Shown: positions 14,482 through 43,421 of the stretch, in pieces
Layout: each line of letters starts with the position of its first letter
Numbering within the stretch: position 1 is the stretch's first letter
NCBI GenBank assembly: GCA_023231475.1
Contig: JALJEE010002827.1
Coordinates: forward strand, 1 to 55,841
Reading direction: 5' to 3'
DNA length: 55,841 nt
Origin: Seison nebaliae
Lineage: Eukaryota
Notes under the pieces: model-generated
Told to the model about the DNA's origin: nothing
What the model saw: only the letters and a program-made list of their open reading frames with translations
Databases searched by the model: none
Position numbers and translations under genes: made by a program

Positions 14482-14606
14482 AGATAATTAGAAGAAATTT
14501 AAATAAATAAATAATAATTTTAATTAATGAAAATTTAAAATTTATTTTTCTTTTCCTCATTTCTTTTTTTGATAGAATTTTTTATTTAATGTAATTTGAA
14601 GGTATC

Positions 14607-20600: not shown

Positions 20601-21230
20601 ATTTTTCAACATAATTATCAATTGGACATTTGTCGAACATTCACCACATTCATTTGTCAATTGAATAAAACGGTGGGAAAACCGTTGGATGAGATCGTTC
20701 TATTATATTTGATGCATATTTATTTGGCGAATTATCATAACTTCAAAATCATTCGTCATTCAAAACAGCAAAACATATTAAACGGTATTGAACATGAATT
20801 TATTGTTGATGCATTGAAAGAAGACGAGGAGAATTTTCATCAATCAATTTTCATTCAATTTCTTCATCTTCTTATCACCATCACTGCATCAAATCCGCCA
20901 GAACTCGTTCATAGCGAAACATTTGTCAACTTTTTTTATTATGAGAAATATAATCAGGAATTCAACGATGAACATTGGAAAGAATCTCATAGTCTCATTT
21001 CTACCATCAAACATCCAAAACTTCAAGCTGAATTGAGATATCTTACTAAACCGAATGAATCATATTATGAATATTCTCAGAGTTTAATAAAAACCATCGA
21101 AGGTTTAAAACGGTGTCATGACGATAAAATGAATGGGAATGATAATAATGATGGACATTTTAAACAATTCCGTCCAGACTCCCATTCTGCTAATTACCCT
21201 GTCATCAAAGACGAAAATTTTATGAACTAA
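14607..21230 (+). CDS. Large intronless 2207-aa, probably alpha-helical protein; tentatively a highly divergent EPG5 (autophagy tether)
   Basis: A 6.6-kb stop-free ORF in very AT-rich DNA is almost certainly coding. No signal peptide, catalytic motif or transposase motif. Short collinear segments (NILIWINNQL, PLIWLQM, AKKFF, TRNFFMTS, KKFDW, RTYLLNLL, VLGRR) resemble EPG5 as I recall it. Confidence is for the CDS; the EPG5 identity is about 0.45. Confidence 0.9.
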   Translation: MTLVNNNENEIKSEIDETNGREIQLAIIRILENGSGKSNGFQNGGNIDEKNCFCTICTKSLLCCRSLDNLEIQQILSHMNEIYSEHKTTVYLSKFCAELLKMLINYIFGEKISKNYHHHHDIHPQFQSLFINKTEEFDLVKNVSLITPEIVDLMDNRINLISPKDAFRAMMTLKILTDESYFTDKQSIVALIQDERFMNFHRSKYTSTLLTINILIWINNQLNNLNSKRCQDIFRIILGKIINIRRLPNSNESQMKLLMEIIRQTFHQLLWNEKNIKNCTLIRRNVICGNMPLYIILPLIKSLIAFDRYSSEFQIFTSSSSTIIEILKENYLFENHFLILLHDEIKLILKKVELFSNLSSSQLFNPLITNRSNGKQYGIINQLYSTTFEELFEMPSATRNLLECLMKKQIVVKLKQINFIPNYQSLNCLFEWKFFYLQKEKRLTMIDLIVYLFSKRFASQFHNIFLHNRLYGFRTFPLILLNENRNNVFDYISYYILNSNTYQDLERLFENWNRNETRQNASSSLAISSCDELKSTYLQFVRIIVAEQFGKCITETFFTIIEQFQLSSKRFIQRCVQLIQPNHQINSDQFLNTSFISLKDVLHQLNQLKRFVEIVIEKNILTSQYLFGYFILLIHFQKHRKKLFCSKKFFVKNEKVESKPHEIVIKNFLIFYLLHFMTSIEPVFYEDSPTDSSNSWDLDVLIRKHNHLLDWKITNNTRRQLNLFLYRQLFNVLESDKLRRTFKSIHDNLLLEQHHLYFKEMLDVENLFVDILLPKYSLHSIREMFIFELIKFDYQTYHHLLGMDNGNLMNNPSFYWSQPFSRNLITPTILLYDILIPSSKQSSAHCHFQNKVNLIFKLFPHSNQTLDGDAIIKGLNHHQINLIERLNSSLTFQHDGNTVSILVKFMNYLLNFLKDKPSERYQKFLQIFFNHPISNLKRQIGYLTLGVTQRTSPFSYRQMQSGNDNHMPFLRLSSNIIDSILTKDNCLLFSLKKCEEIFKVLFDNLLKDKSIIEKTENCIANAKHLLSSKQFYLMNIPLYISLCNIAHFCEPYSIGANIELMEEIMKDQENLSAPLIWLQMIVYNFKLQSSFLLGNNHSGESSIHSFRPSNNHQNDNLLSFLELSFSFAKKFFFYNEFFLLKHWDNVFPNDKLPNRNCFRVSTENGNDFIHQSHSGQFDINFQFALIRIFERLIFFTNFHRLADNPEIYGKFLTEFNIIFSTFTSPFPTLVMNLRHFLIKFLTINFRCTRNFFMTSFFICRFNSLFISNQSFTRNGSVVGFLTNKDVGYPPTDIIQPFIPKFLFFGTSMKLRKLIYQSNLDDHIFDMFKLFVSWSMEDMSAKSITFKYIGRFISFFVTLVNSNDLVLLSEHFNIFNEFKKFDWFNIIISGLESLLKRMTELFDEVDRFIRHLTNMKGILSEMKLFPEYQMLYLRRTYLLNLLVTFDYENNFSKLLKKGKSNEMVIHFTTLSSHYSHRLPTKMKFPCQLPMNSIYFTFLSCFFRHVYENLAQHPQLPIDLHWIHLIEIFRKTTMNTKERMMENLCDYLIQIHLRSFLEKNLFTSFIQGVESKNFHEPNIRTMEQFFRSSQMKVELTRVTEALDFLSEQFNLIDYHKFFYILTFRFFLTNEENLCVNMLSEYILLTYNAKKLQETQMLFKSFSNNETEYNFIDSLNIDESSKQYLLMLISNPDRERSLEALLTYLHYTHSLQMQNKIPFENWFFHKFPNDSHEDQISLISLISKDWRHSISLYIDVLLLKFFQFNLPLTDDLASQLTISLLATDNPFDIIFNLIHRIQTHRHYMYLLYKRLPSNQTIFYDENIDRNNFQKILSNFLKIKSIHIPNWFEELLTSGSNDGIFSRMFGDLIQSRKHKSLSSYVLGRRHCDGELNEIQEISYGFSFKNSLDKYLTYGKLSMFIMKIDYNILFRIFEEQIDHNSHDSQYSIYLADVVGGIAELISSQFLQNILTNSIKMIEEKSIKSFDGLLNDVHLSFYLNLIHSIFQHNYQLDICRTFTTFICQLNKTVGKPLDEIVLLYLMHIYLANYHNFKIIRHSKQQNILNGIEHEFIVDALKEDEENFHQSIFIQFLHLLITITASNPPELVHSETFVNFFYYEKYNQEFNDEHWKESHSLISTIKHPKLQAELRYLTKPNESYYEYSQSLIKTIEGLKRCHDDKMNGNDNNDGHFKQFRPDSHSANYPVIKDENFMN

Positions 21231-24200
21231 AATTAATTTATTTGAAAAATATTTTTATTCGCCACAACGATTATTATTCGTTTAGATAACAACACAAACA
21301 ATGAAACAATAAAATTTCTAGTCACAATATTTTTTCAGTTAGTTAATCTAATTTATTTAACAATCTGTTAGTTACTGCTTAGCAGATTAAAGTTTCCCTC
21401 AATTTTTTTAAACAATCAGTATAACTTTCATTCTTTTATATTCTACTCTTACTATTCTGTTATAACGAATTAATAATAAATTTTTATTTATATTCCAAGT
21501 TACCCAACACATGCTTAAACTTGAGAAATCAGTTGTCTTTTAATTGAATCAACAAAAATTTTAAAGTCACCATATGAGATAATACAATATATTTAAATGC
21601 AACTTAAAAATTTGAACTAGAAAAGAAATTACTTCTCTCAAATTTGTCAGATCTTTTTGAACATTCCTCCTTCCTACTCGTTCCTTCCTGTTAATAATTT
21701 GGAATTATTGTTGGAAGAACCAATAATAATTTTATTATATGGTAAGACAGATAATCGCTTACGATATTTAATCTCAAAAATGTAACATGACAGATAATAA
21801 ATAATAATTAAATTGGTGTATAGCATATCTTATGCTAAACTGAAGTAGTTCACCTGGTTTTCACCACTAAATATAAAAAATAGTTTCGCTGAAAATCCCA
21901 AATAAATTTCTTTTTTGAAAAACTGTCAGAAAACAAGAGGATCAATCTAACTTGTCACATTTGAAGTCTAAACTACATATGAAATTAACAAAATCGTGAG
22001 AGATTTTATCATCAATTTGAATCTAATTTACTATTTGAGCGATTTAAATTCCAACATTGCTAAACTATCTAATTAACTAATTCTCCTGCTACCTTGATCG
22101 ACTTGTGTTTCCTTTTAAGTTTATAACGACCAATAAAATTACTTGCACAACAATAGTTTCCAGTTTGATCGAAAAATTAATTGCATTTCCAAACCATGTC
22201 AATTATTTTGAAATCATTAATGATTGATTGACATTTCATATTTTATCTCATTTATCATAATCGAACTTCTATTGTCTTTTATCATTATTGCATCGTTAAA
22301 AATAGTTCGAATAATAATCTATTCATGAATAATGATATTCAAATCTATAATGAACGTTATTAACTTTTGTCGATAATGTACGACTAAAAATGTTGAAGTT
22401 TCTTTCCATTAACTGAAAGTTGGAAATGGCACATATCGGAATTTTGGAAGTTGATCGAGAAAGAATTTTCCAGAATTGTTAATTCTAAATAAATTTCGAG
22501 TAAAAGAAAGAAAAAAACTTTCCACAAGTTCCACAAAATATTTTTTGATTAAAACAAAACCTCAAACTTACAAAATGTTCGATAATTTGCAGAGTGTCCA
22601 CTAAACTGATCAACGATAACGACATTAGAATCATCCGATTTATTGTCATCTCCTTTTATATTGGATGGATGATCAAGTAATGAATCGAGTTCTACTAAAT
22701 TAAATCAACTATGTCAACTTAAAATATATGCTATTTTTTTGTTTTTTCCATTACTAAATATATTGGAAAATGTCCAAGTTCTTTGAAATCTTTCGAGAAG
22801 AAGTCAATTGAAATAAGTTATGTGTGATTACGAATTCAAATTAGTTGGAAAGTTTAAGAAGAAAAGCCTTTTTTAATGATAATCTTTAGGTGGAAGAAGA
22901 AAAGCACAAATTTTCCAAACTTTTCCTCTTTCGATTTTTTTTGCGTTAGACTTATTTGTTGTAATTAATAAGAAAACATTTTCAATGAGAATTTCAACAT
23001 AATATATTTTTCCGCCAAAATAATAATGTGAGAAAGAAATGGAATTAGGAAGAAAAGAATTATCTTAATAGTAGTTCTCGACCTCCACCTCTAATTTGAT
23101 AATAATAAGACATAATATTATTTAATGATTGTTAGAAAGGTTTGATGAAGGGAAGAGGATGGTCGTCGTGTAACTAAGCGATCAAATAGTTATAGCGCGG
23201 TTCAAATCGGAAAAATATTCAGATGGAAAGAAGATAGTTGAATGAATTCATTGAAGAAAGATGGAAGGATAAGATTTGTATGACATATTTCATGATGGAA
23301 ATATTACTTGTTAATTTATTATAAATATTAATTGGACATGAAAAGAGTTGATGCTTACATAACCAAAGAAGCATAATATACTTACCATTCTGTTTTAGTG
23401 AGCATGTGATTCTATTAGAGAAGTGGATGATAAGTAGTCATACAAATAAATGATGATGAAAACGTTTCATATGTGTGGAATGAATGAGAAGAATTGAATG
23501 AGTGCATTGATTGTTGATAGGGGAATAAATGAAGGTCCAAATATTGGTAATCTTTTCATGAGTTTTCAGGAGAAATAAAAGATTAATTCATTTGTTCAAT
23601 GAATGAGCATAATGAATGTCAACCACTTCTTGTCCCCTCAATCAGATCAAAATCAGGAGCAGGAGACATGTCTCCTTTTACAGACACATTTTATTTACAT
23701 TACTATGAATATTAATGGATATTTCGAGAAAAGTTTTCGGATCCATTCACTTCTCTATAGAGTTCATAATTGATTGATACTTTATGTATATGGATCATTT
23801 CAACAACTTTTGTGCACAATGTGTGCACAGAAGGATCGAACATTTCATCATTCCATCCAACAAAAATCTTGTACATGTCAATTGATCTGATAAACAATCG
23901 ATCTGCGAATAGATTAATTTATGATTCGTATTATTAAGCAAAAGGAAAATTAATTCGTTTCATTTTTCTCGAAGAATTATTCAGTCAATCGACTCCTAAT
24001 CCCTTCCATCTTATCTAATTTCTGTCATTGTATAACACTCCATAATTTGTTCCACATATATCTCTCTCTATTTCTCCATCTCTATCTCGTCAGACTTTGT
24101 CGTTCATCCTAATTAATCGACTTATTATTTTCCGACAGTCCATGATTATCTCCTCATTCGACAATGTAACAATCGAACGTTGACGATGCAAAAATCTTTA

Positions 24201-27200
24201 ATTTCACTCAATAAAATTCATGACAAATAAATTGGTTTTCAAATGTAGTTTCATAAACTTTATTTTTGTCTGCAAAAAGAAATTATTGTTGACGACTCTC
24301 TTCGACAAAACATATGAAATGAACGGGTAAATGTAATCATCTGCAAGTGGTGTCATGTGAGTGATAATATGATTGATTTATCTCGAAAACAGAATACATT
24401 TCTTATTCTTCATACTTCTTCTTCATTTCCGTTATCTGATTTTTACTTAACATTCATTACTGCCATATAATGTTAATGGAATTAAAGACGATTATAAAAC
24501 AATCTTCCAATAATCCCATTTATTCTGCTTTCTAAATTGAAAATCATAAAATTTTCGAAATTCAACCAGATTAAGGAGAAATTGAATTTTTGTAAAAAAT
24601 TATTGAATCAATCGATTTTGCTTGTGTAGAGGATTATTAAAATAACAGAATTTTATTCGAATTAAATTTTACCAATCATTTAATGTTTATCTTATTAATA
24701 GTACTATTCTTGTAATGGAATTCTGGTGAATGGTGTCAGGTATTAAATTGAATGTTCTACTATTTCAACATATTCCACTCGGCGACAATTGTGAGGGAGA
24801 TATCAGTAGATATGGCATAAATGGATGAATAAGCAGTATAATCTTTTTTGTGAGAAGTTTTAAGGATTTTTGGGAGTTCGCCATCAATGTATCTGGTGCG
24901 CGTATGTGTGTTTATGGAACAATTACACATATCTCGTTATTAATATTTTTATATCATTAGAAAATTATTTAAAATTTCTTTAGTTTGTTCAACATTCCTC
25001 CTATTCATTCCCATTGACATATTCATATATTTATACATTCATTTCAATATCAATATGCATATTCGTTTCTTCTTTCCTCAAAAAAAAATTACTAAACAAC
25101 AATTTACAATAGTAATAATAATATTATTATTCTTATGATGGTGATGATGATTTGTAGGAGAGGAATATGTATTGCAATAATCATTGAATAATCGTTCTTA
25201 CATCTTTTCCGTATGGAGATGAATGGATGCGAAAGTTGAATTATATTAGCAGAAAATTTGATATTTATCAATTCATCTTTATTGTGTATTTTCATTTTAT
25301 TTTCCTTCTCCTATCGTTCCTCGTCTTCCCCCGTTAATTCGATTCTTTAATAGAAGTAAAATGTTGTTAATCGTTATAATTTTTTATACCAATTCTTTCA
25401 ATTTCCTTCATAGTTTCGTCGACCAATTTATTTGTTTTCTTAATTTCCCTCAAACATTTCCGTTCCACATTCTCATCAACACATATTCCACTAAATTTCA
25501 ACTTAAATTTTATACGAAATTTTTTTCTCCGAAAGTTCCCAAAAAAAACTATTTCAGCGATCATTTAAAAAAAGAGAATTTATTGACGTTTCTTCTTTTG
25601 TTCAACTGTTGAAAAGATTTCAAATTCAGCTGATATTTTTTCTCCATCAAATCCGTTTGTTGAATTGAATGTTTTTTCTGGAATTGATTCCATCACTTAC
25701 GTAATTAACAAACTCCAACAAAAGAACGACGGGAAGTGACGAAATGGAAGTAGCTAAGTTTTCTTCTTCTCACTAATTCACGGACAAATGGAAAGCAATG
25801 TTATTTTTTCATTATTTCTCCTCCCAACTAAATTATTAATCAACGATCCATTTAGAAATGTTTCCTGTTTCTAAATGGAATGCACACCCAATATAAGTAG
25901 GAAAGTGGAGAAGATTAATATCAGTTTCATTTTCGAAAAAAGAAATTTCCATTTGCAACGTCATTAGGAAGGAATTGAAGATGGAATAAATTCATTTAAT
26001 TGGCAAATTTTCATTAATTTGACTAATAAATTTTGCATATCATTAACTGGTGTGTTAATGATATAAGTTTGTCAGTTTGAGGCGGAGACGATAGAGTTCT
26101 CATGAAACGAATCAATCAGTTATGAGAAGAAGGATTGATTTCATCTGAAGATTATTTCCTAGAGTTGTTTAATAAAACGGAAGAGAATAGTGTTTTATTA
26201 GTTAAATATGACTTGTTTTCTTCTCGAATAGCTGGTGCGGATACAACTTCTTCCTCCACTTTCTTTTCTATATTATCGAATAACGAATTTATTCAAATTC
26301 TCATCTTTCTCCCACAATCACTACTATTCTCATCTCTCCAATCATTAAAATGATCAACTTATCATTTCCATCAAACAATTCTTCACTACTTCACAAATGT
26401 CATCTCGCCAGTTGTTATGAAAAAAGAATATACTCCTTCCATAAAATTGATCTGAACATCCGTTCTAACACAATTTTATTTCCCACAAATCGACTTTCAA
26501 TGAGAAAATATCATCAAACTCTTCCAACCAATACCATTCCTGTTCCTATTTTATGGAATACACAAGTTTGCTTGTGAAGTTCCTGTAAAGTTCATAACAT
26601 TTCCTCAACGAACAACATATCGATTCATATGAGAAATTTAAGTATATTTCATACACATGTCAAATAGTTACCACAATTCAAGTAGTTTGATGGTGAAATT
26701 ATTTGTCGATTATAATTTTATTTTTGGAAACGGATTATTTTTGCACTCGATAATCGCTTGTTAATGGAGAGTTCATAATGATGTGATGTTAGTAGCCGTT
26801 GCCACTTGACCAATTAGACGGAACAGAACATTTAGGAATATCTTTCTATTGATTTATCACTGATCGTTGACTTGTATAATTCGTTGATTATTGAGGGGAT
26901 GGGGAAAGAGTGGAGATATACGTGCACTTCCATCAATCGATCTCGATTACGCTAAACAAGTTGTCGAATAAGCAATTTTTGTTCTATTCGTCTTATTCTT
27001 TCTCATATTATCTTCCTATTACACAAAGTTTGTGTTAAAATTTTTTTTTTGTTGGGAAAGACGAGTAGACGAAGGCAGATGAAGAAAGAAAGAAATTATT
27101 AACTTGTCGATATTTCGGACTTATTTTACATGAATTGCATTTACAATAATGGATTTATAATTCCATGTGGATGCTCTCATTCATCTTCGAGAGAGGAATG

Positions 27201-27797
27201 TTATGTAATTATTATTTTCACAATAATTTCCTTTCTATTAAACAATTCGTGCACACACATATATAAATGTTGTTGTACCAATAAATAATTATGAAAAAGT
27301 TAAGAAACTTCTGATAATAATGTAATGAACATCATATAATTATATTTGTGAACATGTTGCCTTATATGATCAATTCCTCAATTTACACATGTATTTGAAC
27401 ACATATGAATTGAGCTCAATCGCTCAACTTCGCAATAGACATAAAATATTATTCTCTATTTTTTTCCGTTGAACAATAATTGAATTATTGCTGTAGAATG
27501 ATGCATCTAATATCCTGAAAATCTCACTAGTTGCAAGATATGTCGAATTGTTAATATATTGAAAATAATATTCATATTTCTATCAATTCTCATCGAATAA
27601 TTCCAGTTATATAATTGAATGGAATTACTTCTCATTCTCTAATCTTATCTCGTTTAACATCGTCTTTCAAAGTCTCTTCAAACTTCCTCTCGTCCACACT
27701 TTCAGATGCTTCGAAAGAAATCCCGAATAAAAAAATGATTTGAGGACGACTTTGAAATTGTGAAATTCAGATAAAATTTTCTCACCAAAAATCCAAC

Positions 27798-29168
27798 ATG
27801 CAAATCTTGCCCAATATCTTCTCCGCGATATTCTTCCACATCTACCTCAATTCTATTCTACTGAAACATGCTGCCTCAGAATTCTCATTTCATTGTGATC
27901 TGCTCCATCAGCAATGTCGACAATATCTACCGTCAATAAATCAGAGTGATCGACATCGACGTTCAACCAAACCGAGAGAAATCATTCGAGATAACGTTCC
28001 TTATATGATTCATGCCGTCATTAACGTTCCGTTCGATCGACGATATTTCTTCTCCAGAGATAAATTACTTCCTATTCTCTGGATGGCATTGGACGATTGG
28101 AATGGAGAAGATTATAGTTTGAAGCAAATTAAATTCGGAGATATTTATCAAGAGCCCAAATTGAACACTTATACTCATAGTCTCGATATAAAATATTCGT
28201 ATACAAAGAGACATCATCGATCGATTCGAAATCGTAATAAATTCACTTCTTCCAAATCACTCAAATATTTCCATCCATTCGACATTAAACTCGATATTCA
28301 CGATTCACAATGCTCGACCGTTATCGCACCGGTGAATGCAATGCGTGCCACATTAGCCCATAATCAGTTGGTGTCTAAAGTAAATCAGAATCGATACATC
28401 TTCCCATATGACGAGTTGGTGAGATCGTCAAAATTCACCAACTTCCAATCATGGTACAATGATCCCGAACTGATTCATGTATTTTTTGGACCGATGTGCG
28501 ATTTCGCTTTGGCGCCTGTCATTCGATATAGTAGCATCGATTGGAGTATTCCTTTATTGACGATTGGCGGTACCGCCTCCTATTTCTTCAACAACAGCGA
28601 AGTCGGTCTCTTAACTCGTGTGGGTCCCGGTCAATACAATTATATGGTCGATGCAATTCGCAGTATTTTAAATCATTTCTCGTGGAAAGCAAGTGGAATC
28701 ATCAATATCGAAGATGATGTACATGGAAGGAATTTCGTGAAGAAATTTTCCAAAAATGTTACTGCTAATCTCAAAGATTTCTATTCGTTCTATGAGACAG
28801 CCAAAGAGTTAGTAAATTTTCAAATACTCTTTCAAAATTATTTGATGTGATCTGTGAAATGATTTTCGGAAAACGAAAGAATGTTGTGAAAATTATCGTG
28901 AAAAAAATGAGTGGAAAATTTTCGCGGAAAAATAAATGAATAATTTTCATTTTTAGAGATACGGAAACGGAAAGAAAAATTGATGCGAGAGATTCGCGAT
29001 TAATACAAGAAACAGGTGATCGTGGAGATTGTTATCGAATAATTTCAGCAATCAAAAAAGAATTAAAAATATCATCATCCAGCATCGCATTTCGGAAGAG
29101 AATATCTCCCCAACCAATAAGTGTTCTCCGCAACATTCTCCTTTCCGATTTGGGCATCGAACGATCTA
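27798..29168 (+). CDS. Guanylyl cyclase variable N-terminal cassette A (signal peptide plus ANF-receptor ligand-binding region), 2 exons
   Basis: Exons 27798-28807 and 28957-29168 (1222 nt, phase 1). Signal peptide; motifs [51 protein letters not shown]. Ends ...GIERS-a|GTTAGT, which joins 35836 to read ERSIVIMC. Confidence 0.85.
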
Positions 29169-32100
29169 GTTAGTTCGCTTATTTTTCATATTCGTCTCGA
29201 TGAGAGAAATGTAGAAAGAAGATTTTTGATTTGTTTGAAAGTCAATTGGCTTTCAGTCAGATGATAACCTATTACGTAGGAGTTAGCAGAGGAGAATATT
29301 TGGGGAATATTTTTCCATATAAAACTGAATGGTATTGACGGTGCATGTTGGGCATGAATCAATTTTGTTTAAAAAATTAATTAAAATGCCTGTTTGCGAC
29401 GAAATGTCCTTTGTCATTCACATATTCTTCATGTTTTCCAATTAAACGACTGAATTCTGTATGATAATAAATGTATTACACTTTATGGAATTGGAAGGGA
29501 TCAGCACGTTTACCTAATCCGGTTTCCTCTTGTTCGACGGGAAATGTTGTTTCAATGAATTGGAAAGGAGAAATTAGTATGAGGAATAATCTAAATTTCC
29601 TTCGTATTCGTTGGGAAGGATAAAAGGAAAATCTAATTTCATCCTGATTATAACTTGTTCACATCACAGCTCCTTAATAAAAGAAGCAAACACCTTAGGA
29701 TAAGGATCATTTTCTATTTTGAGAAAATGATTGTGATATTATTATTATCAATCTTTCCTATCCCATTTTTCCAGTTTACGATTGTGTAAATTCATTTCTT
29801 ACCAAATCTCTCTCTCCACCCTCTCTCTCTCTCTCTCTTTGATGGAGGGAGGGGAAAATGTTTGGGAGAAAACGGAGAAATTCTAGTTCATCTTTGTTTT
29901 TACTTGGAAGCCAAGTATGGACGAATATTAGGTTATCAGAAAAATAATATTCAAAAGAGACAAAGTTTTTTTTATTTCTTCTCATCATGTCACCGTAGTC
30001 GACCTTTCTCTACTTTTTTCTCCTACGTTATTCTATCTTTGAACTGTATCGACAATATAAAGTCGTTCCAATATTATCGTAGAAGTTCATTTATCATTCG
30101 ATTGGAAAACGGCACGAGAGATTCTAGTTCTGAATGAAATGAATGAGTGATTGAGCATGAAAATTGATAATCAAAAAAAAATTCTTTTGATTAATGAATT
30201 ATCCATTCATATTTATATCTGCCTCCACAACACTATCCATACTTAATAAAATCATTTGTAAAATTGTTGGTAGAGAATTGCATCGATCGAGAGTCTCACA
30301 CTTCTCCCATCAAAATAACGAAATGTCGTCGGAACATTGAACTTTTTCTCCTAATAAGAAATTTCCATTCCTCAAATCTATGTTCCTAATTTAGTGTTCG
30401 ATATGTTATGGGGTCGATGTAATAATTTTATTATTGATAATGATATCGTTAAAATGTAGAAAGTCGAACTATATTACTTCCGCCATTATTCAACATCGTG
30501 AAAAATACTGTTTGGCGAAAAGGAGAAATATCTGGGGAGAAACCAGTGAAAGTTTTAATGAATGAGCAAATCATTTACACATGAGTCCCTAAACAAAATT
30601 TTTTGGAAGACAACATATAAATCGCTTCTTTACATCTCGGAGAGTTACTGCTGTTAACATCACCAGGAAATGATTGTCGCTGCCTACCATACGATCGTTG
30701 TTGATCTACCAATTCCAGGTCATCATGGTTATTTACACAGACATTTACACACAATTATTCTTTATTCTCCAATGCACATTCTTAATATCCTTCGTCAAAT
30801 ACTTCGCTCGTGTATTGGTAAGTGAGAAATGTTTTATGTTTATTTTGGTGGAAAATTATGCTGATAATAATGTGAAAATTGCGGAAAAAACGGAAGATTA
30901 AATTATAAACTTATCTGAATTTTCTCTATCTCCTCCACATTCACTTTACTTCACAATTATAATTATTACATTAACTCTACTCATTGAATTGCATTAATCG
31001 CAATCTGACGACTCTCATCCAAAAAACAACACTTCATCAATTCCTTAGCACAACATCTCGTCTTTGATGTCATAGTCACTGATATATCTAAATCTAATAA
31101 ATTTGTGTGCGACTCAATTCATTTTTTCTCTAGTCGATTCGTGAAGAATATTCATCGTTTAATAATTATCGATGGCAGCGATTATGTTCGATGTTGTTCT
31201 TCAAATCTTAAAATTTTTCGGAAGAATTTCTTCCAACTAATAATGAATTTCCGGTTGGCGCATACACTTCACATAATCTAACATCGGTTTTCTTATAAGA
31301 AAACATTTCGAAAACACAACAACTGTCGCTCATGTACAAATATTATTCATCTATCTTCTGATTGGGAGGAGGAAGTGAATAAGAAACGTAAATAGAGAAT
31401 AAGTAGATGATATTGATAGTCTAATAAATCTTGAAATTTTGAGATATTATAGAATATTCATAATTATGCATCATTACCATTCTCATTTTTCGTTTGAATT
31501 ATCTTTCGTAATCGGTCTTTTATTTAGAAGAATTATTATAATCCAATTATTCATGTCTACTTCACAAATTTGATCATGTGAAACAAATTTCACAGATAAA
31601 CGAAACGAATAAGTCGAATATACGTTTCTGAATAGAAACCATCAAAATTGACCACGGCACCGATTAGAGAAATACTTCTTCCTCACTCCGAAAATGGCAA
31701 GGGACAAAAGAATGATATGTATGTGTGAAAATTATTTTATTGTTGAGGAAAGTTTATTTAAGAAATATTCATTTCCTGCTGAAATTCCTGTGAGATGGAA
31801 AATAGGAAAATTATGAAAAAAGTTTCCTTGCATAATTCTTATTCTTTCATTTATCTTGTTTGTGAAATTTTGTTTTAATTAAACAATTAGTACGGAGACG
31901 TCATTCTGATTTGTGCCTTCTTCAATAAGTTTAATGGATGCAAGTTTGAAGTGAAATGGAATGAATTCTGATAATTCTTATTATTTAATATGTAAATGCA
32001 AATGATTTGACTCTTTCGCGATGTTGCATAACTCCTAATTTTTAGTGTGAGACACATACGTATTTATTGTTGGGGAGGGGGGAATATATTGATTATAATG

Positions 32101-35100
32101 CTTACTCTCCTATCAAAGTACTTGACTATTCATAAATGTTTCTTCCCATAAATCAATTTGAACTTTTCTTCTTTGTGTGTACGTCGGATGTGAAGCATTT
32201 CACAGATCTGATTATGTTAATGTTATCCGACCGAAATAAGCACTTCTACATTAAGTTCAATAGGAATATTTAAGCATTGAATCGATAAACGTGTATCGTT
32301 CGATTTTTCTCCCGCTTTCTTTCCTCCGTGGAAATTCGAATATTTTCGTTAAGGATTAGCCGAGTCGTCATCTTCCCTCGTTTTCTTATTAGTTTAATGT
32401 ACAGATGAAGTCGCTATTTCTATCGTTGTTTATCTTTCTCATTCTGTGTTAGTGATAAAGAAATTTATCCGATCATGTTCTTGATCTGATTGCTCATACC
32501 AGTTAATGAGATATCAGAGGAATGTAATTGACATTTATGTAAGGAATGGAGGAAGTTGGATATGTGATTTACCTGTAAGACATCGTTAATCAGAAGAAGA
32601 AAAAGACGATAATATCGTCACGATAATAAGATGAGATTCAGTTCTTCCCATTCATCGAGACATTATTAATACGGATACTCGTTGTAAGAAAGGAGAAAAT
32701 TATACGATGACAATATACTTCTTTCTCCCTTCTAATAGAATGAGAAACATATTAATTAATTGATCTATCGAGAGGAAAGATGCTCGTCTATTTCCAGTTT
32801 ATTTATTTTCCGATCAATGAACATTATATGAACACAGAGAATGATGGGAAATTGAAGAGGAATACACTTTTTTTTAAATTCCCTTTTTTCTCTGTCGTCG
32901 TCTTTCAATCTTTAACAATCAAAATTCTCCTTTTGACGCACTTCGTGCAAAGTCACAAGAAAACGAGAAAGCGAAACTTGTTCTTTGTTGGAGTCTATAC
33001 GCCATTTTCGCTAGGCGAATTTAAGTAGGAAATTATATTTCTTATAAATACATATCTCAATAAAGACATTTAGTTAACGATGAAGATAAATATGGAAATT
33101 AACGAATACATCCATCTCACAATTATTCATTCATTCTTTTATTTTTTATGAATCTCTCCCGCCCAAACATTCTTGTTGAGTGCTACCTAAATTGGTTATC
33201 TCATTCTCCTCCTTCATTCTCACTGGAGACAGATGAATTTGCATAATTCTTAAACATTTACTTGTCATATCCCCCCTCCTCACCACTAGACTACATCAAT
33301 AAGATTCTTAAATTTCCTTTTTGAAAGATTTCTTTTTTTCTCGACGGGAATGAAGAAAATATTAAATTTTATTTTTCTCGCCATTCTCAATTGGGAGGAA
33401 CATGGGCACGAGTGTAGATCGAATACGAATAGGAATTTGCGAAGTATATCCAATCCGATCAAGATCGGCGTATTATTATCGTCATTTGCTGACAGGAAAC
33501 AGGCGTACATACCTTCCTTAGCTTTAGGTGCGATTTTGGAGGGCTTAGAAGATATCAAATCATCGAAAATGAGAGTTGAGGTTGTTGGCGAATTCTCGGA
33601 ATGGAATGTGATGGAAGAAACGAATTACACACAAGTCAAACGGATTCAGTTGCAAGAGACTCAATCGTTTGCAGAAACCAGTCTCCATGAAAGAATGAAA
33701 TGGACGAAAAGTATAAATGATTGTGTAGGAGCAGGTAAGTCTAAAGAGGAGATGATATCGAATTTATTAAGAATGAAATCAGAAATTTCTCAAAAGAAGA
33801 AAACTTTCCATAAAAAGAGGAATGTTATCGAAGTTATCGTCATGAATACATTCCATAGTGATACCATCGCACCAATGCGAGCCATCGACCAATATATTAT
33901 GGGCGTCAATTTGTTGGTGGGTGGAATCAATGCACACGCAATCGCTCCAGTTGCCCGATTCGCAACCATCGTTCGAATACCCTTCATCTCGTTGTATGGT
34001 GGTGTCACCGAATTGACAAACGGAAAACTCACCGAATACTCGATGTTGACACGAACAACAGCTGAATACAGTAGTTATGCGAAAGCTTTATTGAAAGTGC
34101 TCGATAAATTCAATTGGAAAAAAGTGGGACTAATTATTGAAGATGATAAGTCAACAAAATCCGATGCAACTTACTTAATCGCTCGTGCCTTCTATTATAT
34201 TAAGCAATGTCATTTCTTTAATATTGCAGCTATGTCACCTGAAGAACTTCTACCAAAACTTCATAGGCAGGCAAGAGGTTAAAACTTGAATAATTTCTCA
34301 TTCTCCTCACAAACACCTTTTAAAACTTTTTTAAACTTTTAACGAGAACGAATCATCTCGAAGTAACAAATTCGGAAAGTGTTGTAGAATTTTGAAAAAA
34401 AGTAAATTTTCTAGAAATTTTTTTCGGAGATAAAAATATAACAAATAAATTCTGCTCAAATTTGCAAATACGAGAAAAATAAAAAAAATAAAAGAAATTA
34501 TTCTGTTTCATTGTGTGAGTGGTTGAATGAAAAATTGAGTTTACATTTAAAAAAAAAACATTTTTTTCTTCTTTGATTGATTAAATCAGATTTATTTCCA
34601 TAAAAATAATAATATTAACAAAAATTTGTTGTTATGAAATAGAATGTAAGATTACAGGAAGCGAATGACTGTTGAATATGTTAGAATGTGTCTGTTTTTT
34701 ATGGTTGGAGCTATTTATATGAGAAAGATACGAACATCAATAAAGATTGGTGTTATCATCTCATCAGTTCCAGATAAGGAGCATGCATACATTCCAGCTC
34801 TTACGCTTGGAGCAATCTATACCGCTTTGGAAGATGTGTGTGATGAGAATGCGATTGTTAATCTGGTTGGTGACATAAAACGATTCAATCTCACTCAATT
34901 GACGACGATCAATAAAAAGAACATAAAGAACATTGCTTATGAGCAGAAGTTGAAAGAGGAAGGCTTAATATGGAAGAAGGACTGGTATCGCAATTACCAA
35001 CGAGACGTACAACGACGAAATATGTTGGATCGATATTTATTGAATCAGCCACAATTTATCATGTCGGAAGAACGAAACATTTCCTTCGTTAATTCAATCG

Positions 35101-38100
35101 AAGAAGCAAGACATTCTCATCTGATCGACGAGGAATTGATGAACATCAAAAAGGGAACGATCGATAATCATCGACCCACAATTAGCATTTATTTGAACGA
35201 CACTTTCTTCAACGACGCCATAGGAAGTATCTGTGTGTACGACCAATATATTTTAGGCGTCGATCTATTCGTAGGCGGTCAAAATCCCTTTGCCATCGCA
35301 CCGATCGCTCGATTCGCTGCACTGGTCGGTCTACCATACCTCACAACATATGGTGGAGTCGACTTCTTGACAACCAATAAACTAACGTACTTCAGAACAC
35401 TGACACGAACAACGTCCGAATATAAAGCGATTGCTAACGTTATTGTAGAACTATTGAGACATTTCCATTGGAAACATGGATCGCTCGTTTATCAAAGTAC
35501 TGAAGATAAGACATCTGCTTCCTATTACATAGCAACCGCCGTCTGGAAGGAATTACGAAATTCAGTGAATAATTTAAGTTTTAAAAAAAAGAACTTTTTT
35601 GAAGAGGCTACCGAAGTACTTGTCAATGAATTAAATTTGGATTCCCGAGGTATTATTATGAAATTTTTCTTATTTATTTTTCCACCAACTCTCCTCACAC
35701 AATTTTTTCACAATTTTTCACATTTTTTACACAATTATTTTCTGTAAGACAATTTGAACTAGATAGTGAATTAAGAATTAAAAAAAGATTTCTATCGAGT
35801 AACTATAACTAATTTCTCTTCTTTTTCAATTTCAGTTGTTATTATGTGCACGTCACCGGATAATGTACGACATCTATTGTTAACAGCTCATCGATTGGGA
35901 TTCATCAATGGCGAATATGTATTCATCAATTTGGACATATTTTCTGGGTTAGTTTTCTCCTTGTCAGAATCTTCTTTCAAATTTTCTTTAGCGAAGAATA
36001 TCTAAATCGACCATGGTATCGTGAGAATGATACAGATGAACGAAATGAACGTGCGAGAAAAGCATATGAGGCTCTCCTAATTCTCACCATCCGAAAACCA
36101 AGTATGGAACATTTTGACGAATTCTCTAAACGAGTCGAAGCGAAAACGAAACAATTATTCCGAATGAGTAATGGCACCGTTCCAACGATAAAGAAAGGAG
36201 AAGTTCCATTATACTCTCATTTAACATTATAAACTCTGAAATTATAATTTTAGGTCAATAATTTCATTACGGCTTTCTATGATTCCATCATTATTTATGC
36301 CGATGCATTAAGTCGCGCTATTGAGAAGGGAAAACATCCATCAGACGGTGTTGCGATTACTAATTTGATGTGGAATCGATCATACCATGGTGCTACTGGA
36401 GAAGTTTATCTGAAATTGTTAGATATTGTTAATTTTGTTGTGTTAGATCGTCTTGAACCATAATGGAGATCGTGTGGTCGATTTCGATTTGCTGGATATG
36501 GATTATGAATCAGGAAATTTTTCGAGTGTTGCCACCTATCATTCTTCAAATCAAACATTTGTATTGAATCCATTCAAGAAGATCTATTGGCATGGAAAGA
36601 ATACAACACCTCCAGCTGATACACCACAATGTGGTTTCGATAATTCAAAATGTCCTGATAAACGTTCGAAAATAATTTTAATTTTAAATAGTTTTAAATA
36701 ATTTTTTTTTCAGAAATTCCTTTTTGGATGTGGATAATTATTGCGATGTCTATATCGATGGTGATCGCCTTAGTGTTTTCCGTTTTTATTTACAGGTTTT
36801 CCTCATTTTTCTTATTATTTCCTTTCTAATTGAGAAATATGTTAGAAAATCGAGATATGAAGCTGAATTGGCTGGTATGGCGAATTATATGATAAAATGG
36901 TCGGAACTGAAATATAGTGGGGTGGAAAAGTTCGTGGAATTTGGGAATAATGCGGATGAAAGTCAACTCTCCATCGAGAATGACGGTTATGATGAAGATG
37001 ATTTGGCGAGTAAACCGAATGGAATGTCCAAGAAAAAAAATTACAAAATTTATGACGCAAATGATGAAGACGAAATGAATTTATTATCACGAGAAGTTAA
37101 TATTTTTTTTTGAACATTTTGATGATTATTTTGAAGGATTCTCAACGAGTTGATGGAAATAAAAAAGACCATAGGAATTCGGTAGCTAATTCCATTTTTA
37201 CCATAACCAGCACGTTCGATGGAACGAACAATAAAGCATTTACCACGACGGCATTATATAAGTCGAGTATCGTTGCATTGAAAAAAATTCATCAATCTCG
37301 TATCGATACCAATCGAGCGTTAATGTTGGAAATGAAACAAGTTTGAAATTTTGAGAATAATTCCATAATTAATTGATTTAGATGAAAGATATGAATCATG
37401 AACATATCGCGAGATTTGTTGGTCTTTGTGTCGATACACCATATCATTTCATCATAACCGAATATTGTCCGAAAGGATCTTTGCGTGACATTCTCGAGAA
37501 TGAACAAATACGCCTCGATTGGATATTTCGACATTCATTGATGCATGACATTGTCAAAGTTTACATTTCTATCAATTCAAATTCCATCACGAATATTTAG
37601 GGAATGAGTTATATTCATAACAGCGAGATCCATTCACATGGTAATTTGAAGAGTTCGAATTGTGTTGTTGATTCTCGATTCGTTTTGAAAATCACGGATT
37701 TCGGATTTCATTCGTTACGTTCCCCACCGTCAAATAATGAGCAGGAATTGACGAAAGATCACGCTTATTATCAAGGTCTTTTATGGACTGCTCCCGAATT
37801 ATTGAGACAATCAAATCCCAAACCTGGAGGTACTCAACGTGGCGACGTATATTCATTCGCTATCATTCTTCAAGAAATTATTTATCGCAAAGGTGTCTTC
37901 CATTTCGAAGAAGAGAGAGATATGTTACCTGAAGGTTCATTATCATTCAATTTGAAAATTTAAATTTTTTTTAATTTTAATAGAAATTTATCGAAGTGTT
38001 AAAGAAGGAACAGGATTGAGACCGACAATTAAACCAGACGCTTGTAACGCGCCAGAAGTGGCTGAATTAATTTTAAAATGTTGGGCAGAAGAAGTGGCAG

Positions 38101-39805
38101 ACCGGCCTGATTTCAATCATATTCGTGGAATTATGAGAAGAATCAACAAGTTAATTCCATAATTATCTGTTCGATGATGGAAAATTTAATTTCTGTTATT
38201 TTAGAGGAAATGAAACAGGAAATATTGTGGATAATCTGTTGAAGAGAATGGAACAATATGCGAACAATTTGGAGAGTATCGTGGAAGAACGTACGAGTGA
38301 TTATCTCCAAGAAAAGAAGAGAGCCGAAGAATTATTATATCGGTTAGATTTATCGTTTATCGATTCTACAACTATTGATCTACTCTCAGATTGTTACCAC
38401 CAGCAGTGACGAAAGAATTATTATCAGGTAAAACGGTGACAGCTGAAACATTTGATTGTGTCACCATTTACTTTAGTGACATTTGCGGTTTCACCAGTAT
38501 ATCCGCCGCCATCACACCAATGGAAGTTGTGGATCTATTGAATAATTTATACATTTGTTTCGATTCGATAATTGAACATTTCGACGTTTATAAAGTGGAA
38601 ACAATCGGTGACGCATATATGGTCGTTTCAGGTTTACCGACCAGAAACGGTGATAGACATGCCTCGGAAATTAGTCGAATGTCTTTGGCATTATTAAACG
38701 GGATACATTCGATAAAAGTGGGAAAGAATAAGAATGAGCAATTACGAATAAGAATCGGAATACATTCAGGTCCGTGTGTGGCTGGTGTTGTTGGAAGAAA
38801 AATGCCCAGATATTGTCTCTTTGGTGATACGGTCAACACTTGTTCCCGAATGGAAAGTAATGGACTACGTTCGATTTTCTTATATATTTATTATTTATAA
38901 TATTTATTTTTTTTATTTTATATTTTTAGCATTAAGAATTCATGTCAGTCCATCAACAAAGAAAATTTTGGATCAATATAATCAATTCGATTGTCAGTTA
39001 CGGGGACCGGTATCGATGAAAGGCAAAGGAGTAATCACAACATATTGGCTAATTGGTGAGCATGGCGGATTACAAGTAGCACCTCCATTAGACCCCGACC
39101 CCCTAGAAACGCAATTTCGAAATTTAGCCAAACAACAAAGAAATTCGATAAAGATCCCCGAGAAAAAATTAGACGAACATAAAAGAAGAACACTAAAACC
39201 AGCATCTTCAGGTTTTTTTGTCTTAATTTTCTTAATATCTGATAAATTTAAATTTGATAGAAATTACAGTGAGTAAAAAACCGTCATTAACCGATCAAAT
39301 CATCAGTTCATCGACTTGTGATGTCTTCGAAGAAAATCGGAATCTTTACGAGAAATATATGGAAGAGAAACCGATAAATATCCAACAATTGAAAGAGGAA
39401 TTGCCGGAAACCAAAGTTAAAAAGCAAATTACACAATCGGACATTCTAATCAAAAAGAAGAATGTTTGCACGAAATGTAATCGATCCAAATCTCGAGAAC
39501 GTCGAAGGAGAAATCGATCGAAAGGAAATAAAATTCCAGAGGAAGAATTCGAATTATCTTCATTACTCCAAATGAAGGAGCAACATATCAATAAGGAATC
39601 GAATTCGATCCATTGTCTCCAATGTTGTAAACATCATAAAAATTGTTCAGTTCATCATTCAAATCTTTCGACCAATATGAACTTCAATTATGAGAACAAT
39701 GAAATGAGTAATATGGCGACAGAAAATGATGAGGTCTCCATCATCTCTCAGTCAAACGACACACAATCGAAACAGAAATCAAATTTAAAAAATTCAATAA
39801 TCTAA
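27798..39805 (+). CDS. Receptor guanylyl cyclase, natriuretic-peptide-receptor type; whole locus (isoform A ~1522 aa, B ~1424 aa, C ~1443 aa)
   Basis: Constant exons 35836-35947, 35992-36202, 36254-36403, 36447-36663, 36714-36795, 36846-37095, 37137-37340, 37382-37558, 37601-37934, 37984-38149, 38205-38342, 38390-38868, 38930-39211, 39261-39805, all phase-consistent. They encode the rest of the ECD ([38 protein letters not shown]), a TM helix, kinase-homology domain ([28 protein letters not shown]), coiled coil (MEQYANNLE) and cyclase ([30 protein letters not shown]; the Glu/Cys pair indicates GTP specificity). Confidence 0.93.
29807..29838. repeat. (CT)n/(GA)n microsatellite
   Basis: tctctctctccaccctctctctctctctctct read directly; lies between cassettes A and B. 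Confidence 0.8.
33350..34277 (+). CDS. Guanylyl cyclase variable N-terminal cassette B, single exon
   Basis: 928 nt, phase 1. Starts [13 protein letters not shown]; motifs [43 protein letters not shown]. Ends ...HRQAR-g|GTTAAA, which joins 35836 to read QARVVIMC. Confidence 0.85.
34665..35649 (+). CDS. Guanylyl cyclase variable N-terminal cassette C (proximal), single exon
   Basis: 985 nt, phase 1, with an in-frame TAA at 34647 upstream of the ATG. Motifs [40 protein letters not shown]. Ends ...LDSR-g|GTATTA, which joins 35836 to read DSRVVIMC. Its signal peptide is weaker than those of A and B. Confidence 0.88.
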
Positions 39806-40139
39806 AATTTTCCTACCACACATCATCCTAAACTCAATCAATTTTATTCAAATTTCATGTCATACCGGTGCTTTTTCTTACAAACATTTCTAGCGTCTTT
39901 CATAAAATGTAGATTTCGATCAGTATCAAAATTAATTTTTTAAAATTTTCATCTAAATTTAATAAAAAATTTTTAAATTTTTTTCCTCTTATTTTTAAAT
40001 TATAACAATTTTAATTGAAATGAATTAATGACAAGTAAATTGTTCGAAAATAAAAATATTTCTTACCGATTTCATTTTAATTTATTAAGTTTCGCCTTTT
40101 CTTATTTGAGAAAGGACTAAAAAAAAGTTATTCCTCACA

Positions 40140-40352
40140 ATGATCGAAGACAGTTTACTTACACGGAAAGCCATCGATATTTTAAAGACACCACATTATA
40201 TCGGAAAATATTTGATATTCCTCATCATATTGCTTATCAGTACAATTTGGTTTATCATTTGTCGATCAATTAAAATATTTTTCATGGTACTAATTGGAAT
40301 TTGGATGCTCATTGTTCATTGTTTCACTACTCAAAGAAAATTCAAAAGCTAA
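40140..40352 (+). CDS. Possible small (70 aa) membrane protein, unknown family
   Basis: ATG..TAA ORF in a caaATG context, visibly less AT-rich than its flanks, with two hydrophobic segments and a basic C-terminus. No homology recognised. Confidence 0.4.
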   Translation: MIEDSLLTRKAIDILKTPHYIGKYLIFLIILLISTIWFIICRSIKIFFMVLIGIWMLIVHCFTTQRKFKS

Positions 40353-41059
40353 TAATATTTGTTTAAAAAAATTCTAATTTCAAAATTTCTTATTTTCCTA
40401 AAATTTTTATTGGATTTTTTTAAATCTTTTTTAATTCTATAATTTTAAAAATATTCAATCTATTAAGATTTATAGTTTAAAAATAAAAGTGATCTGATTA
40501 TAAATTGTTATCCGGTATAAATATGCACAGAAAATGCACAAATTATTTTTATACCTTCAATTGAACCAAATCTCCGTTTCGGGAAGTTATCGATGTAGCC
40601 AGAAACGACGTAACTTCAAAAATCTTTTAATTGTCCAATATTTGATGTAAAATGGATTGAGCACAATTCACGCACAAAAAAGAATTTTCTCATATTATTT
40701 CTGAACAAAAGTTTATTATTATTATTTAGGGGAATTTTTGAGGAATTTAAATTTATCAATATGAATGTTAAATAAAAATTGGAATGGTAAAGGTTGCTTT
40801 CTATAAGAATCACTGTGAAGATAAAAAAGAAATTTATTGGGAATTTTCAAAAAATTAATGATTAAGTCCGAAATGAGATAGTAAATTAAAACTATTCATT
40901 TTCAAACTTTATTTCGATTTTTCATTCTTCGCCACTTAACCACTTTTTTTCCATCTATATCTTCTTTACATGAGCCGAGAGACGATTACGTCTTTGAGTA
41001 GATTAGAATAAGAATTAAATTTCCAAATTGTTTTGGTCAGTATGTCGAATTAATAGAAA

Positions 41060-43421
41060 ATGCAACCGAAGAATAAGAAGAAACTGTCGAACTTAAAATT
41101 GAATGGCGAACGAGGATTTTCTACTGAATCGATTCGTTCTTCGAAAAAGAATGGGAGAACTCCTTCAGTGTCGTTACATTTAGTTCAACCAAAAGTATGT
41201 TCGATTAATGAACGACGACCAAAGAAGCGTGAGAAATCGTCGAACATGGAATATTTGAAAGAATATTTGATCGATAATGAGGAAAGGGGAAATTTGCAAA
41301 TAGTGAATAAATATGACAGAAATGTTCGATTTCTAGAGACATCTCGTTCATTTAATGACGAGTGTGAAGATTTGAGTAGAAATTGGAATAATAATACTTC
41401 AAATAATGCCGGTTTGCCTGGTAACAATAACATGGATAATATGGGAAATGAAGTTGTATCAAAACGTGTTGGTGATTTAAAAATCGCCAATTCCGGTAAA
41501 CCGATTGGAAGTAGAGCCACATTGTCAAGTGTTCGATTGAATGAAATGAAGAAAATGAGAAGTAGTGAAAAACGATGGTATCAAAAGATCAGTGTTGAAC
41601 CAATCCTCTTCTTGTTTATGCTCTCCGTTCATATAACCATGCCAGTGGAACAAGGTTTAGTTTATCAGAAAGTTTGTCTGCAAATGTACGACAAAGATTT
41701 ATGTAAAATTATCAATCGAAATGCTTCACTAGTTCAACATGAACGTGTCGTCCAAGAAAAGAGTTCACTTTGGTTAATGTATTTAGATATAGCACTCGCC
41801 ATTCCCAGTATTGTTACGGCTACTTATTTCGGTAGTATTAGCGACTCATTGTCTCAGAAATTGCCAATGATTCTCGCTAATATCGGCGCATGTTTATCAG
41901 CTGTCAATTATTTATTATGTGCCGCTTATATCAGTTGGCCACCGGCCGTTCTACTTCTTTCAAATTTCCTTTACGGATTCTTTGGCGGTTCAACTGCTTT
42001 ACTTTCTAGTGTTTTCTGTTATTTGTCCCAAATATCCGAAGACTCTCAACGTACCACACGAATGGCTATACTTGAAGCAATGTTGATGTTAGGTGCCACA
42101 TTAGGAATGTCGTTGAGTGGTGTCATACTCGATCATACGAATTTTACAGTTACTTTCACCATCGTTCTTTCCATACATGTGATAAATATCAGTTCCATCA
42201 ACATTCCATTGTCATTCATTCAAATCTTTCTCTCTTTCAGTTTATGTTATTTATTTCGTAAAAGATATCGGAATTCCTGTTTATGATCCCACCACTGGTC
42301 AAGTGGTCTTAGAACAAATGACTTGGAAGAAATTCGGGTTTGAAAAATTTCAGTTCAAAATCATCATAAACCTCATTCTTCAGAGTCCATACGAAAGAGA
42401 ATTTAACAAAGTGTAGCCATTTCAAAGAATCGGGAGAAGTGTTGGTGAAAGATCGGCCCGGAAGTCGAAGAACATTTATACTTCTCATATTAAGCGCCTT
42501 CTCAGTCAGTGTACTGACGTCGATGGGTTAACAATTTTGAAAATAGAAAGAAGAACTTTCTTGTTTTTATAGGAGAAAATACTATATCGTTTCTTTACTT
42601 AAGAAAATCACCTTTATCATTCACGCAAACTCTATATGGAATTTTTCGCGGTCTCAAAAGTTTCCTCACTTGCATCGCCCTCATAGGAATACTTCCCATT
42701 CTTCAAAAGTATTTCGATATATCCGACTTGACTTGTGCCATCATCGGAACGTTATCTAAGTGCTTAGGAGATTTCATGTACGGTTTCGCCACCAGTGCCC
42801 GAATGATATTTTTTGGTAATTTTTCCTTCGTCATATTTTTTTCATTTTTTTCTCTTTTAGTTCCCGTCTTGGGAATGTTCGGCAGTTACATAGCGGCTAG
42901 TGTACGTTCTTATTTATCTAAACAAGTCGCACCAAGCGAACAAGGTTTTCATCTAATGATTTGAGAATATTTTAAAGAAAACTTTTATGAATTTCAAATA
43001 ATTTCAGGAAAATTATTCGCGATAGTTGCGAGTGTTGAGAATGTCGATATTCTCGTCGGTACATTAGTGTTCAATGGAATTTATGCTTCCTCATTAGATA
43101 CCATGCCAAGTCTAGCGTTCTATGTCGCTACAGCACTTCATTTCTTTACTCTACCACCATTTATGTTCCATTTATTTAATACAATTTTTTTAAATCTAAA
43201 ATTTATTATCTTTTAGGTATGTGAGTTTCAAGGAGAAAACGGTGTCAGAGGCACATGAACCTCCATTACCGAGTCCATATTTACATTCGGAAAATTCACT
43301 AACTATCAGTCCAACCGATTTAACAACAAACGAATTGGCAAGTCGATATGATGATTCGAAAACTCGGAACGATCTCATCACATTGGAAGCACTGGCACCA
43401 GCACCAATAGACAGAAGTTAG
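41060..43421 (+). CDS. MFS transporter of the SLC46 (PCFT/HCP1-like) family, ~686 aa
   Basis: Exons 41060-42191, 42241-42337, 42384-42526, 42573-42815, 42861-42944, 43008-43164, 43217-43421. Family-typical ISVEPILFLF, QKVC..DLC, GSISD, RTTRMAILEA, LYLRKSPLSF, RSYLSKQVAPSEQGKLFA; about 12 TM segments after a ~175-aa hydrophilic N-terminus. Confidence 0.9.

Follow-up and report, generated by a model that had tools for sequence, protein, structure and literature searches.

Mammalian natriuretic peptide receptor (NPR) genes have one N-terminus each. In Caenorhabditis elegans, isoforms a, c and d of the receptor guanylyl cyclase (GC) gcy-28 reportedly differ in the extracellular part. Each of gcy-28.c and gcy-28.d is described with its own promoter, start sequence and forward primer, the reverse primer and the 3' end being the same for both (PMC9249223), and expression is broad for gcy-28.c and located in the AIA neurons for gcy-28.d (PMC9249223; PMC3842693; also PMC5290486). 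The locus examined here lies in a 55,841-nucleotide (nt) stretch of the Seison nebaliae genome (contig JALJEE010002827.1 of assembly GCA_023231475.1, positions 1 to 55,841 of the forward strand), hereafter the window. Between positions 27798 and 39805, three paralogous 5' coding segments, termed cassettes A, B and C, precede one set of exons, termed the body, that encodes the remainder of an NPR-type receptor guanylyl cyclase. The proposed reading, to which a probability of about 0.8 is assigned, is that of one gene whose three tandem cassettes are spliced alternatively to a shared acceptor, probably from separate promoters. Such a gene would resemble gcy-28 as a receptor cyclase whose promoters determine how the protein begins and whose 3' part is shared.

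Comparable designs are described for unrelated receptors. The protocadherins and the chelicerate sDscam genes have tandem 5' variable cassettes, alternative promoters and common constant exons (PMC4835542), although these are adhesion receptors with many whole-domain cassettes, whereas the Seison locus has three half-domain cassettes and encodes an enzyme-linked receptor. In Drosophila Gr28b, a separate start and exon for each of five isoforms is spliced to two common exons (bioRxiv 10.1101/2024.01.20.576342), but the gene encodes an unrelated protein, a gustatory receptor channel. Drosophila babo combines a single signalling body with three alternative ligand-binding exons, for which different preferred ligands are supposed (bioRxiv 10.1101/2024.03.05.583454), and differs in that these are mutually exclusive versions of an internal exon 4 in a TGF-beta type I receptor. 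Serial duplication of the ligand-binding domain is described among TGF-beta receptors (PMC13187141). The vertebrate receptors NPR-A and NPR-B (GC-A, GC-B) and NPR-C share the domain order of the Seison protein and are its best Protein Data Bank matches in sequence and fold; they differ from it in that the Seison cassettes carry inserts of approximately 60-150 residues and that B and C are without the conserved cysteines.

The suggestion of the original prediction that the design was new for a receptor cyclase is too strong in view of the gcy-28 promoters (PMC9249223) and of an architecture present in RefSeq for the horseshoe crab Tachypleus tridentatus. No paper presenting cassette arrays as a general pattern in receptor cyclases was found in a search that covered the subscription literature thinly, and the accessible parts of PMC13267572, PMC12923798 and PMC6712205 hold nothing on receptor-cyclase cassette arrays. 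As the variable/constant design is already known, the candidate novelty may lie in its recurrence across phyla and in the loss of all three conserved cysteines from B and C together with the gain of a long helical insert.

Three cassettes and one cyclase body

Cassette A is encoded by two exons on the forward strand. The first (27798..28807) encodes the leader, N-terminal insertions and the ANF_receptor core, in which Cys172 and Cys234 are kept, and the second (28957..29168) keeps Cys362 and ends at the phase-1 donor GTTAGT at 29169. The original prediction had treated A as one cassette of 1222 nt; this coding length stands, with the correction that it requires removal of a 149-nt intron at 28808-28956. 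Cassette B is a single exon (33350..34277, forward strand) of 928 nt and 309 codons with the phase-1 donor GTTAAA, and a helical-hairpin insert is predicted at about residues 93-153. Cassette C, the sister of B, is likewise a single exon (34665..35649, forward strand) of 985 nt and 328 codons, and its phase-1 donor is GTATTA. All three cassettes open with an ATG and break off after the first base of a codon, directly before a GT, and the body has a single acceptor (CAG at 35833-35835) for them, so that the predicted coordinates, start codons, phase-1 ends and shared acceptor all hold. The hydrophobic leaders that had been proposed alongside the start codons proved to be only modest, with best 9-residue Kyte-Doolittle means of 2.2 in A, 2.8 in B and 2.7 in C.

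The cassettes are related at the protein level. The ANF_receptor Pfam domain scores 42.4 bits in A, 59.2 in B and 41.6 in C (cut-off 25.4). B and C are 35% identical over 279 columns, and A is 32% identical to B over 84 columns and 27% identical to C over 132. A six-frame hidden Markov model (HMM) scan of the window detected the three cassettes and a single set of constant ectodomain exons, with no fourth cassette and no second constant set there, in agreement with the claim of a single downstream body. A weak constant-exon-like match at 32854-33048 (independent E-value, iE, 0.65) was dismissed as chance. The spacers measure 6567 nt before A and 4181 nt before B, and 387 nt separate the donor of B from the ATG of C. 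The region upstream of A (21231-27797) comprises 6.5 kb without a convincing open reading frame (ORF), which is large for a compact genome, and is possibly a regulatory region or a site of non-coding exons.

The body consists of 14 exons on the forward strand. Four constant ectodomain exons (35836-35947, 35992-36202, 36254-36403 and 36447-36663) span 35836..36663, and the first of them carries the common acceptor and the cysteine of the VIMC motif. The transmembrane exon (36714..36795) is identified by a hydrophobic stretch in its translation and by its aligned position in P0004 against NPR1. It is followed by six exons for the juxtamembrane, kinase-homology and linker regions (36846-37095, 37137-37340, 37382-37558, 37601-37934, 37984-38149 and 38205-38342) and by two guanylyl cyclase exons (38390-38868 and 38930-39211; Guanylate_cyc E 2.8e-55). 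The cyclase motifs are intact and match those of human NPR1 in an alignment, and we take their roles to be those generally assigned to such motifs. The last exon (39270..39805) encodes a C-terminal tail without a Pfam match and the stop codon; this tail of approximately 180 amino acids (aa) contains basic and Cys/His-rich patches and is missing in the Tachypleus relative.

Joined to A, B and C, the body gives open frames of 1519, 1421 and 1440 aa, respectively, with one stop codon. The three predicted joins (ERS-IVIMC for A, QAR-VVIMC for B and DSR-VVIMC for C) are thus all in frame. The products have the domain order of an NPR-type receptor guanylyl cyclase, namely an ANF_receptor ectodomain, one transmembrane helix, a kinase-homology domain and a cyclase. 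In the locus, paralogous 5' cassettes with individual start codons follow one another in tandem, their donors have the same phase and there is one constant exon set, which is the arrangement of a variable-first-exon gene.

Assembly, annotation and selection

Misassembly of separate full-length paralogues had been named in advance as an outcome that would refute the prediction. Positions 25500-41500 are contained in single unitigs of sequencing runs X1 and X2, with 0 and 1 differences, and 27780-34330 is contained in one piece in X3 and in two overlapping pieces in X4. The spanning unitigs of X1, X2 and X3 have even depth. One of the four runs may be the source of the window itself, in which case the support is not fully independent. 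The best DNA match among the cassettes is 65% over 183 nt, and they have no long DNA repeat in common. With single even-depth unitigs over the stretch and no such repeat, a misassembly is highly improbable.

The National Center for Biotechnology Information (NCBI) model KAI3379471.1 (SNEBB_001321) consists of C and the body. It begins at Met13 of C instead of at 34665, and its acceptor for the last exon lies 9 nt further upstream. For cassette A, NCBI has a 408-aa protein of its own, KAI3379469.1, which shares 407 residues with the cassette and includes the 149-nt intron, and NCBI nr also lists the 310-aa read-through product of B (P0001) separately. The expectation that automated annotation would split A and B off as orphans was therefore borne out. 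The Seison genome is reported as gene-reduced, with a size of 44-46 Mb (PMC8351084).

Divergent contigs of low depth in runs X1-X4 fall within 27959-38341 and would serve for dN/dS estimates on any gene of the window. Their depth is about 2-4, compared with 14-27, and they are roughly 81-92% identical to the coding parts. Two nuclear lineages are described in S. nebaliae, and in the rarer one the AU skew at third codon positions is weaker (PMC8351084); the excess of T>C and A>G differences in the low-depth contigs fits such a sister lineage. Among the per-site differences listed (40 of 118 and 40 of 261), 30 of the 36 changed codons in cassette C are synonymous (approximately 0.2 expected, P 7e-15), as are 14 of the 16 in cassette B (approximately 0.2 expected, P 1e-8). 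B and C are under purifying selection, and the insert of B is also constrained, since most of the B differences listed fall within it. The sister pieces listed align over 766 nt of the 1010-nt first exon of A without a gap; they also cover 759 nt of the 928-nt cassette B and 575 nt of the 4181-nt spacer between A and B. The evidence that the cassettes are kept by selection consists of synonymous excess for B and C and of the gap-free first exon for A.

Upstream of B, several non-coding islands are also preserved in the sister lineage, at 32199-32300, 32478-32538, 32732-32769, 32849-32875 and 33081-33274. Together these islands (within 32199..33274) are a candidate for the promoter or the 5' UTR of B, and a further such island at 27163..27259 is a candidate regulatory element of A. 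The islands and the long spacers before A and B speak against a reading in which all cassettes join the body but the choice among them falls to a common non-coding leader spliced to one or the other, or to spliced-leader trans-splicing, in place of separate promoters. The own ATG and leader of every cassette and the separate starts in gcy-28, Gr28b and sDscam also disfavour it. Such a mechanism, which is compatible with the main claim of splicing to the body, would account for the little space before C and for acceptor-like AGs at 27705 before A (score 5.8) and 34414 before C (score 5.2; true acceptors range from 5.0 to 11.5), and babo provides a precedent for mutually exclusive ligand-binding exons. 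It is regarded as unlikely.

The junction and the cassette classes in other animals

The junction between cassette and body aligns to R|VIYIC in human NPR1. An HMMER search returned 458 relatives of A, and the protein counts given below are drawn from the best 150 of these 458. Of 98 homologues that reach the junction without being joined to a body, 77 continue with G or S followed by K, E, M, R or Q, or end there; such a read-on is expected from a phase-1 GT donor. In metagenome loci, N|GT is present at or near the junction in 13 of the 19 that reach this point, in 12 of them within one codon. On this sequence evidence, the junction is a conserved phase-1 intron position of animals, and copying the segment upstream of such an intron gives an in-frame alternative at once. 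Many of the short matches may be no more than first exons that a contig end or a long intron separates from the rest of the gene.

The closest parallel is found in the T. tridentatus ANPR1-like models XP_076366604-607 of RefSeq. The N-terminus of isoform X2 is 46% identical to the one found in X1, X3 and X4 and is joined at R|VIVMC, and the bodies of isoforms X1 and X2 are identical. As proposed for Seison, paralogous N-termini meet one body at the same point in these unremarked database models; they differ from the Seison set in being two sister cassettes (96/100) with the conserved cysteines in both. The Tachypleus duplication is independent of that of B and C. Five of the 150 matches, which are models from Batillaria, Bulinus, Lingula, Branchiostoma and Polypterus, chain two or three whole cassettes without a constant segment, the Branchiostoma model containing three. 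The two chordate models are P0021 (Branchiostoma, CAH1254748.1) and P0022 (Polypterus, KAG2462139.1). The sequences of these models suggest tandem cassettes in the respective genomes, without showing a common body. A spider sequence (P0029) was removed from the tandem count because its repeated blocks resemble an assembly artefact. In P0054 and P0112, A-like cassettes are joined to the same kind of constant exon, and 3 of the 79 metagenome loci contain one cassette and the first constant exon. The ESM Atlas holds ANF_receptor clusters of 250-320 aa from arthropods, chordates and nematodes, two of which are named 'fragment'. Word-based searches with B, and with A against longer proteins, gave no relatives; this is a weak method, as the 458 HMMER relatives demonstrate.

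Two classes of cassette are separated by phylogeny. The trees omit P0010, P0040, P0152, P0105, P0088, five redundant members and segments shorter than 165 aa. A FastTree analysis of 130 cassettes sets an EVG class that includes A (SH 0.99) apart from SR-type cassettes that include B and C. In an IQ-TREE analysis of 44 cassettes, B and C group together (100/100) and A groups with the EVG set (84.9/84). These trees suggest an ancient origin of A. They also favour the view that A is the first segment of an older receptor cyclase paralogue of the EVG class, with its body lost or located elsewhere, so that only B and C would be true alternatives, and the 4.2 kb between A and B agrees with it. However, an AU test does not reject a single clade of A, B and C (p 0.13, with the constrained tree taken from a fast search), and the spacer between A and B holds no trace of a body, the chance match described above being the best there. 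Cassette A is moreover intact and conserved and therefore needs a body, of which the nearest in frame is the shared one. A paralogous origin of this kind is considered highly improbable.

The cysteine content follows the same division. At the columns of Cys172, Cys234 and Cys362 of A, cysteine is present in 88-100% of the aligned homologues, and B and C have other residues at all three. In NPR-A, the partner of the third of these cysteines is presumably the cysteine of the constant strand. AlphaFold models have a mean pLDDT of 69.9 for A and 82.1 for B and display the expected alpha/beta core; the insert of B is modelled as two long helices, and the inserts of A are mostly of low confidence. 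By fold, A matches NPR-C and NPR-A, and B matches mGluR as well as NPR ectodomains, in each case over part of the target, and the TM-scores of both models against NPR ectodomains, scaled by target, are 0.30-0.34, as expected for half a domain. Cassette A resembles a typical peptide-binding half. A different stimulus is probable for B and C, in which the three conserved cysteines are gone and a long helical insert is present.

A broader pattern can be put forward tentatively, and it is more doubtful than the reading of the locus itself. NPR-type cyclases of Bilateria may repeatedly, and perhaps anciently, have kept arrays of alternative ligand-binding first segments for a single body; EVG and SR cassettes would then share a body in spiralians, many of the ANF_receptor 'fragments' of 230-320 aa in databases would be overlooked isoforms, and B and C would represent a cysteine-free, helix-extended class of sensor. 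In that case, distinct cGMP receptors for invertebrate neuropeptides would be undercounted.

Proposed splicing of the cassettes and its consequences

All 13 donors of the body, the internal donor of A (28808) and the terminal donors of A and B (29169 and 34278) begin with GTT, and C alone has GTA. GTT in place of the usual GTR is possibly an unusual donor consensus of the species, as seen in this one gene. With splice-site matrices trained on the gene's own 13-15 sites, the donors of A and B score above the donor of C, which is the one that NCBI uses, and the shared acceptor ranks first among 310 AGs, a rank that is partly circular given the training. Body introns measure 41-61 nt, and the others are the 149-nt intron of A and the 186-nt intron between C and the body. 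Other acceptors after A open 14 stretches of at least 25 codons, none of them body-like, and after B no such stretch was found. The start of the intron after C (35649-35660) reads through as GIIMK, similar to the VVIMC of the constant exon (35836-35846); this likeness is probably chance.

Several observations weigh against splicing of all three cassettes to the body. The database model joins the body to C only, the joins of A and B being inferred. The donor of A scores 4.8, lower than any of the 13 donors used for training (6.8-9.6, values that the training itself raises), and 10% of the spacer GTs score at least as high. The introns from A and B to the body would be 6667 and 1558 nt, far longer than the rest, and only the 387 nt between the B donor and the C start would be available for a promoter of C. 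After the donors of both A and B an in-frame stop lies one codon into the intron, and AATAAA or ATTAAA is present within 500 nt of each, so that they could end as separate transcripts. Exon 2 of A is covered by none of the sister pieces listed, and the conservation of A rests on its gap-free first exon, with no per-site differences among those listed. The Tachypleus isoforms are computational database models, and none of the 79 metagenome loci, most of them below 5 kb, contains two cassettes.

These stops and polyA-like hexamers, together with the NCBI orphan models, would suit A and B as independent short genes for secreted partial ectodomains, acting as decoys or binding proteins, with the body used by C only; purifying selection fits this equally well. 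The stops nevertheless need no other cause, because TA(A/G) after GT is common in the gene, 4 of the 13 body donors starting with GTTA. A and B also end exactly at the animal-conserved intron position, and each makes up approximately half of a two-lobed domain. Further, A keeps the cysteine whose partner we take to be in the constant exon, and the Tachypleus models link such cassettes to one body. Separate short genes are thus distinctly unlikely. Splicing of three cassettes to one body is well supported by the conserved junction, the selection on the cassettes, the horseshoe-crab join and the NCBI split. The locus is real and its function is probable.

In the proposed mechanism, an ancestral first coding segment, bounded just before the V-I-x-x-C strand, would have been duplicated. 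Each transcript would use its own cap-proximal donor with the acceptor at 35836, skipping the downstream cassettes. A cassette would supply the N-terminal approximately 208 of 440 ectodomain residues, and its choice would shift ligand preference or expression site. The three resulting receptors would differ in the half that faces the ligand and have the transmembrane, kinase-homology and cyclase parts in common. In NPR-A, the half that is equivalent to a cassette presumably contains the dimer surface and the majority of the hormone contacts. The identities of 27-35% among A, B and C make different ligands likely; by analogy with gcy-28, the isoforms could instead differ mainly in expression site. 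Mammalian receptor cyclases are described as homodimers and C. elegans ODR-1/DAF-11 as a heterodimer (PMC5225109), and heterodimers of the Seison products would require co-expression of two cassettes.

If this reading is correct, one gene in a compact genome encodes three receptors, two of which are missed by standard annotation. A similar annotation error is likely in the cassette-chaining models of snails, brachiopod, amphioxus and bichir. Deorphanising invertebrate NPR-type cyclases would then need every cassette-body isoform, and the locus would constitute a natural swap experiment in which half of a ligand-binding domain is exchanged against a fixed signalling body. The pattern is directly testable with existing transcriptomes.

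The window also contains neighbouring genes. Upstream on the forward strand are a Cys-loop channel subunit (713-3674) and eIF3d (12685-14481), and on the reverse strand a subtilase of the prohormone-convertase type (about 4200-7691) and an intronless TGF-beta family ligand (9940-11556). An intronless ORF of 2211 aa without a Pfam match (14595-21230, forward strand) is unusual where tiny introns are frequent. Downstream of the body are an MFS transporter (41057-43216) and Mo25 (49052-50732) on the forward strand and a two-pore potassium channel (51609-53650) on the reverse strand.

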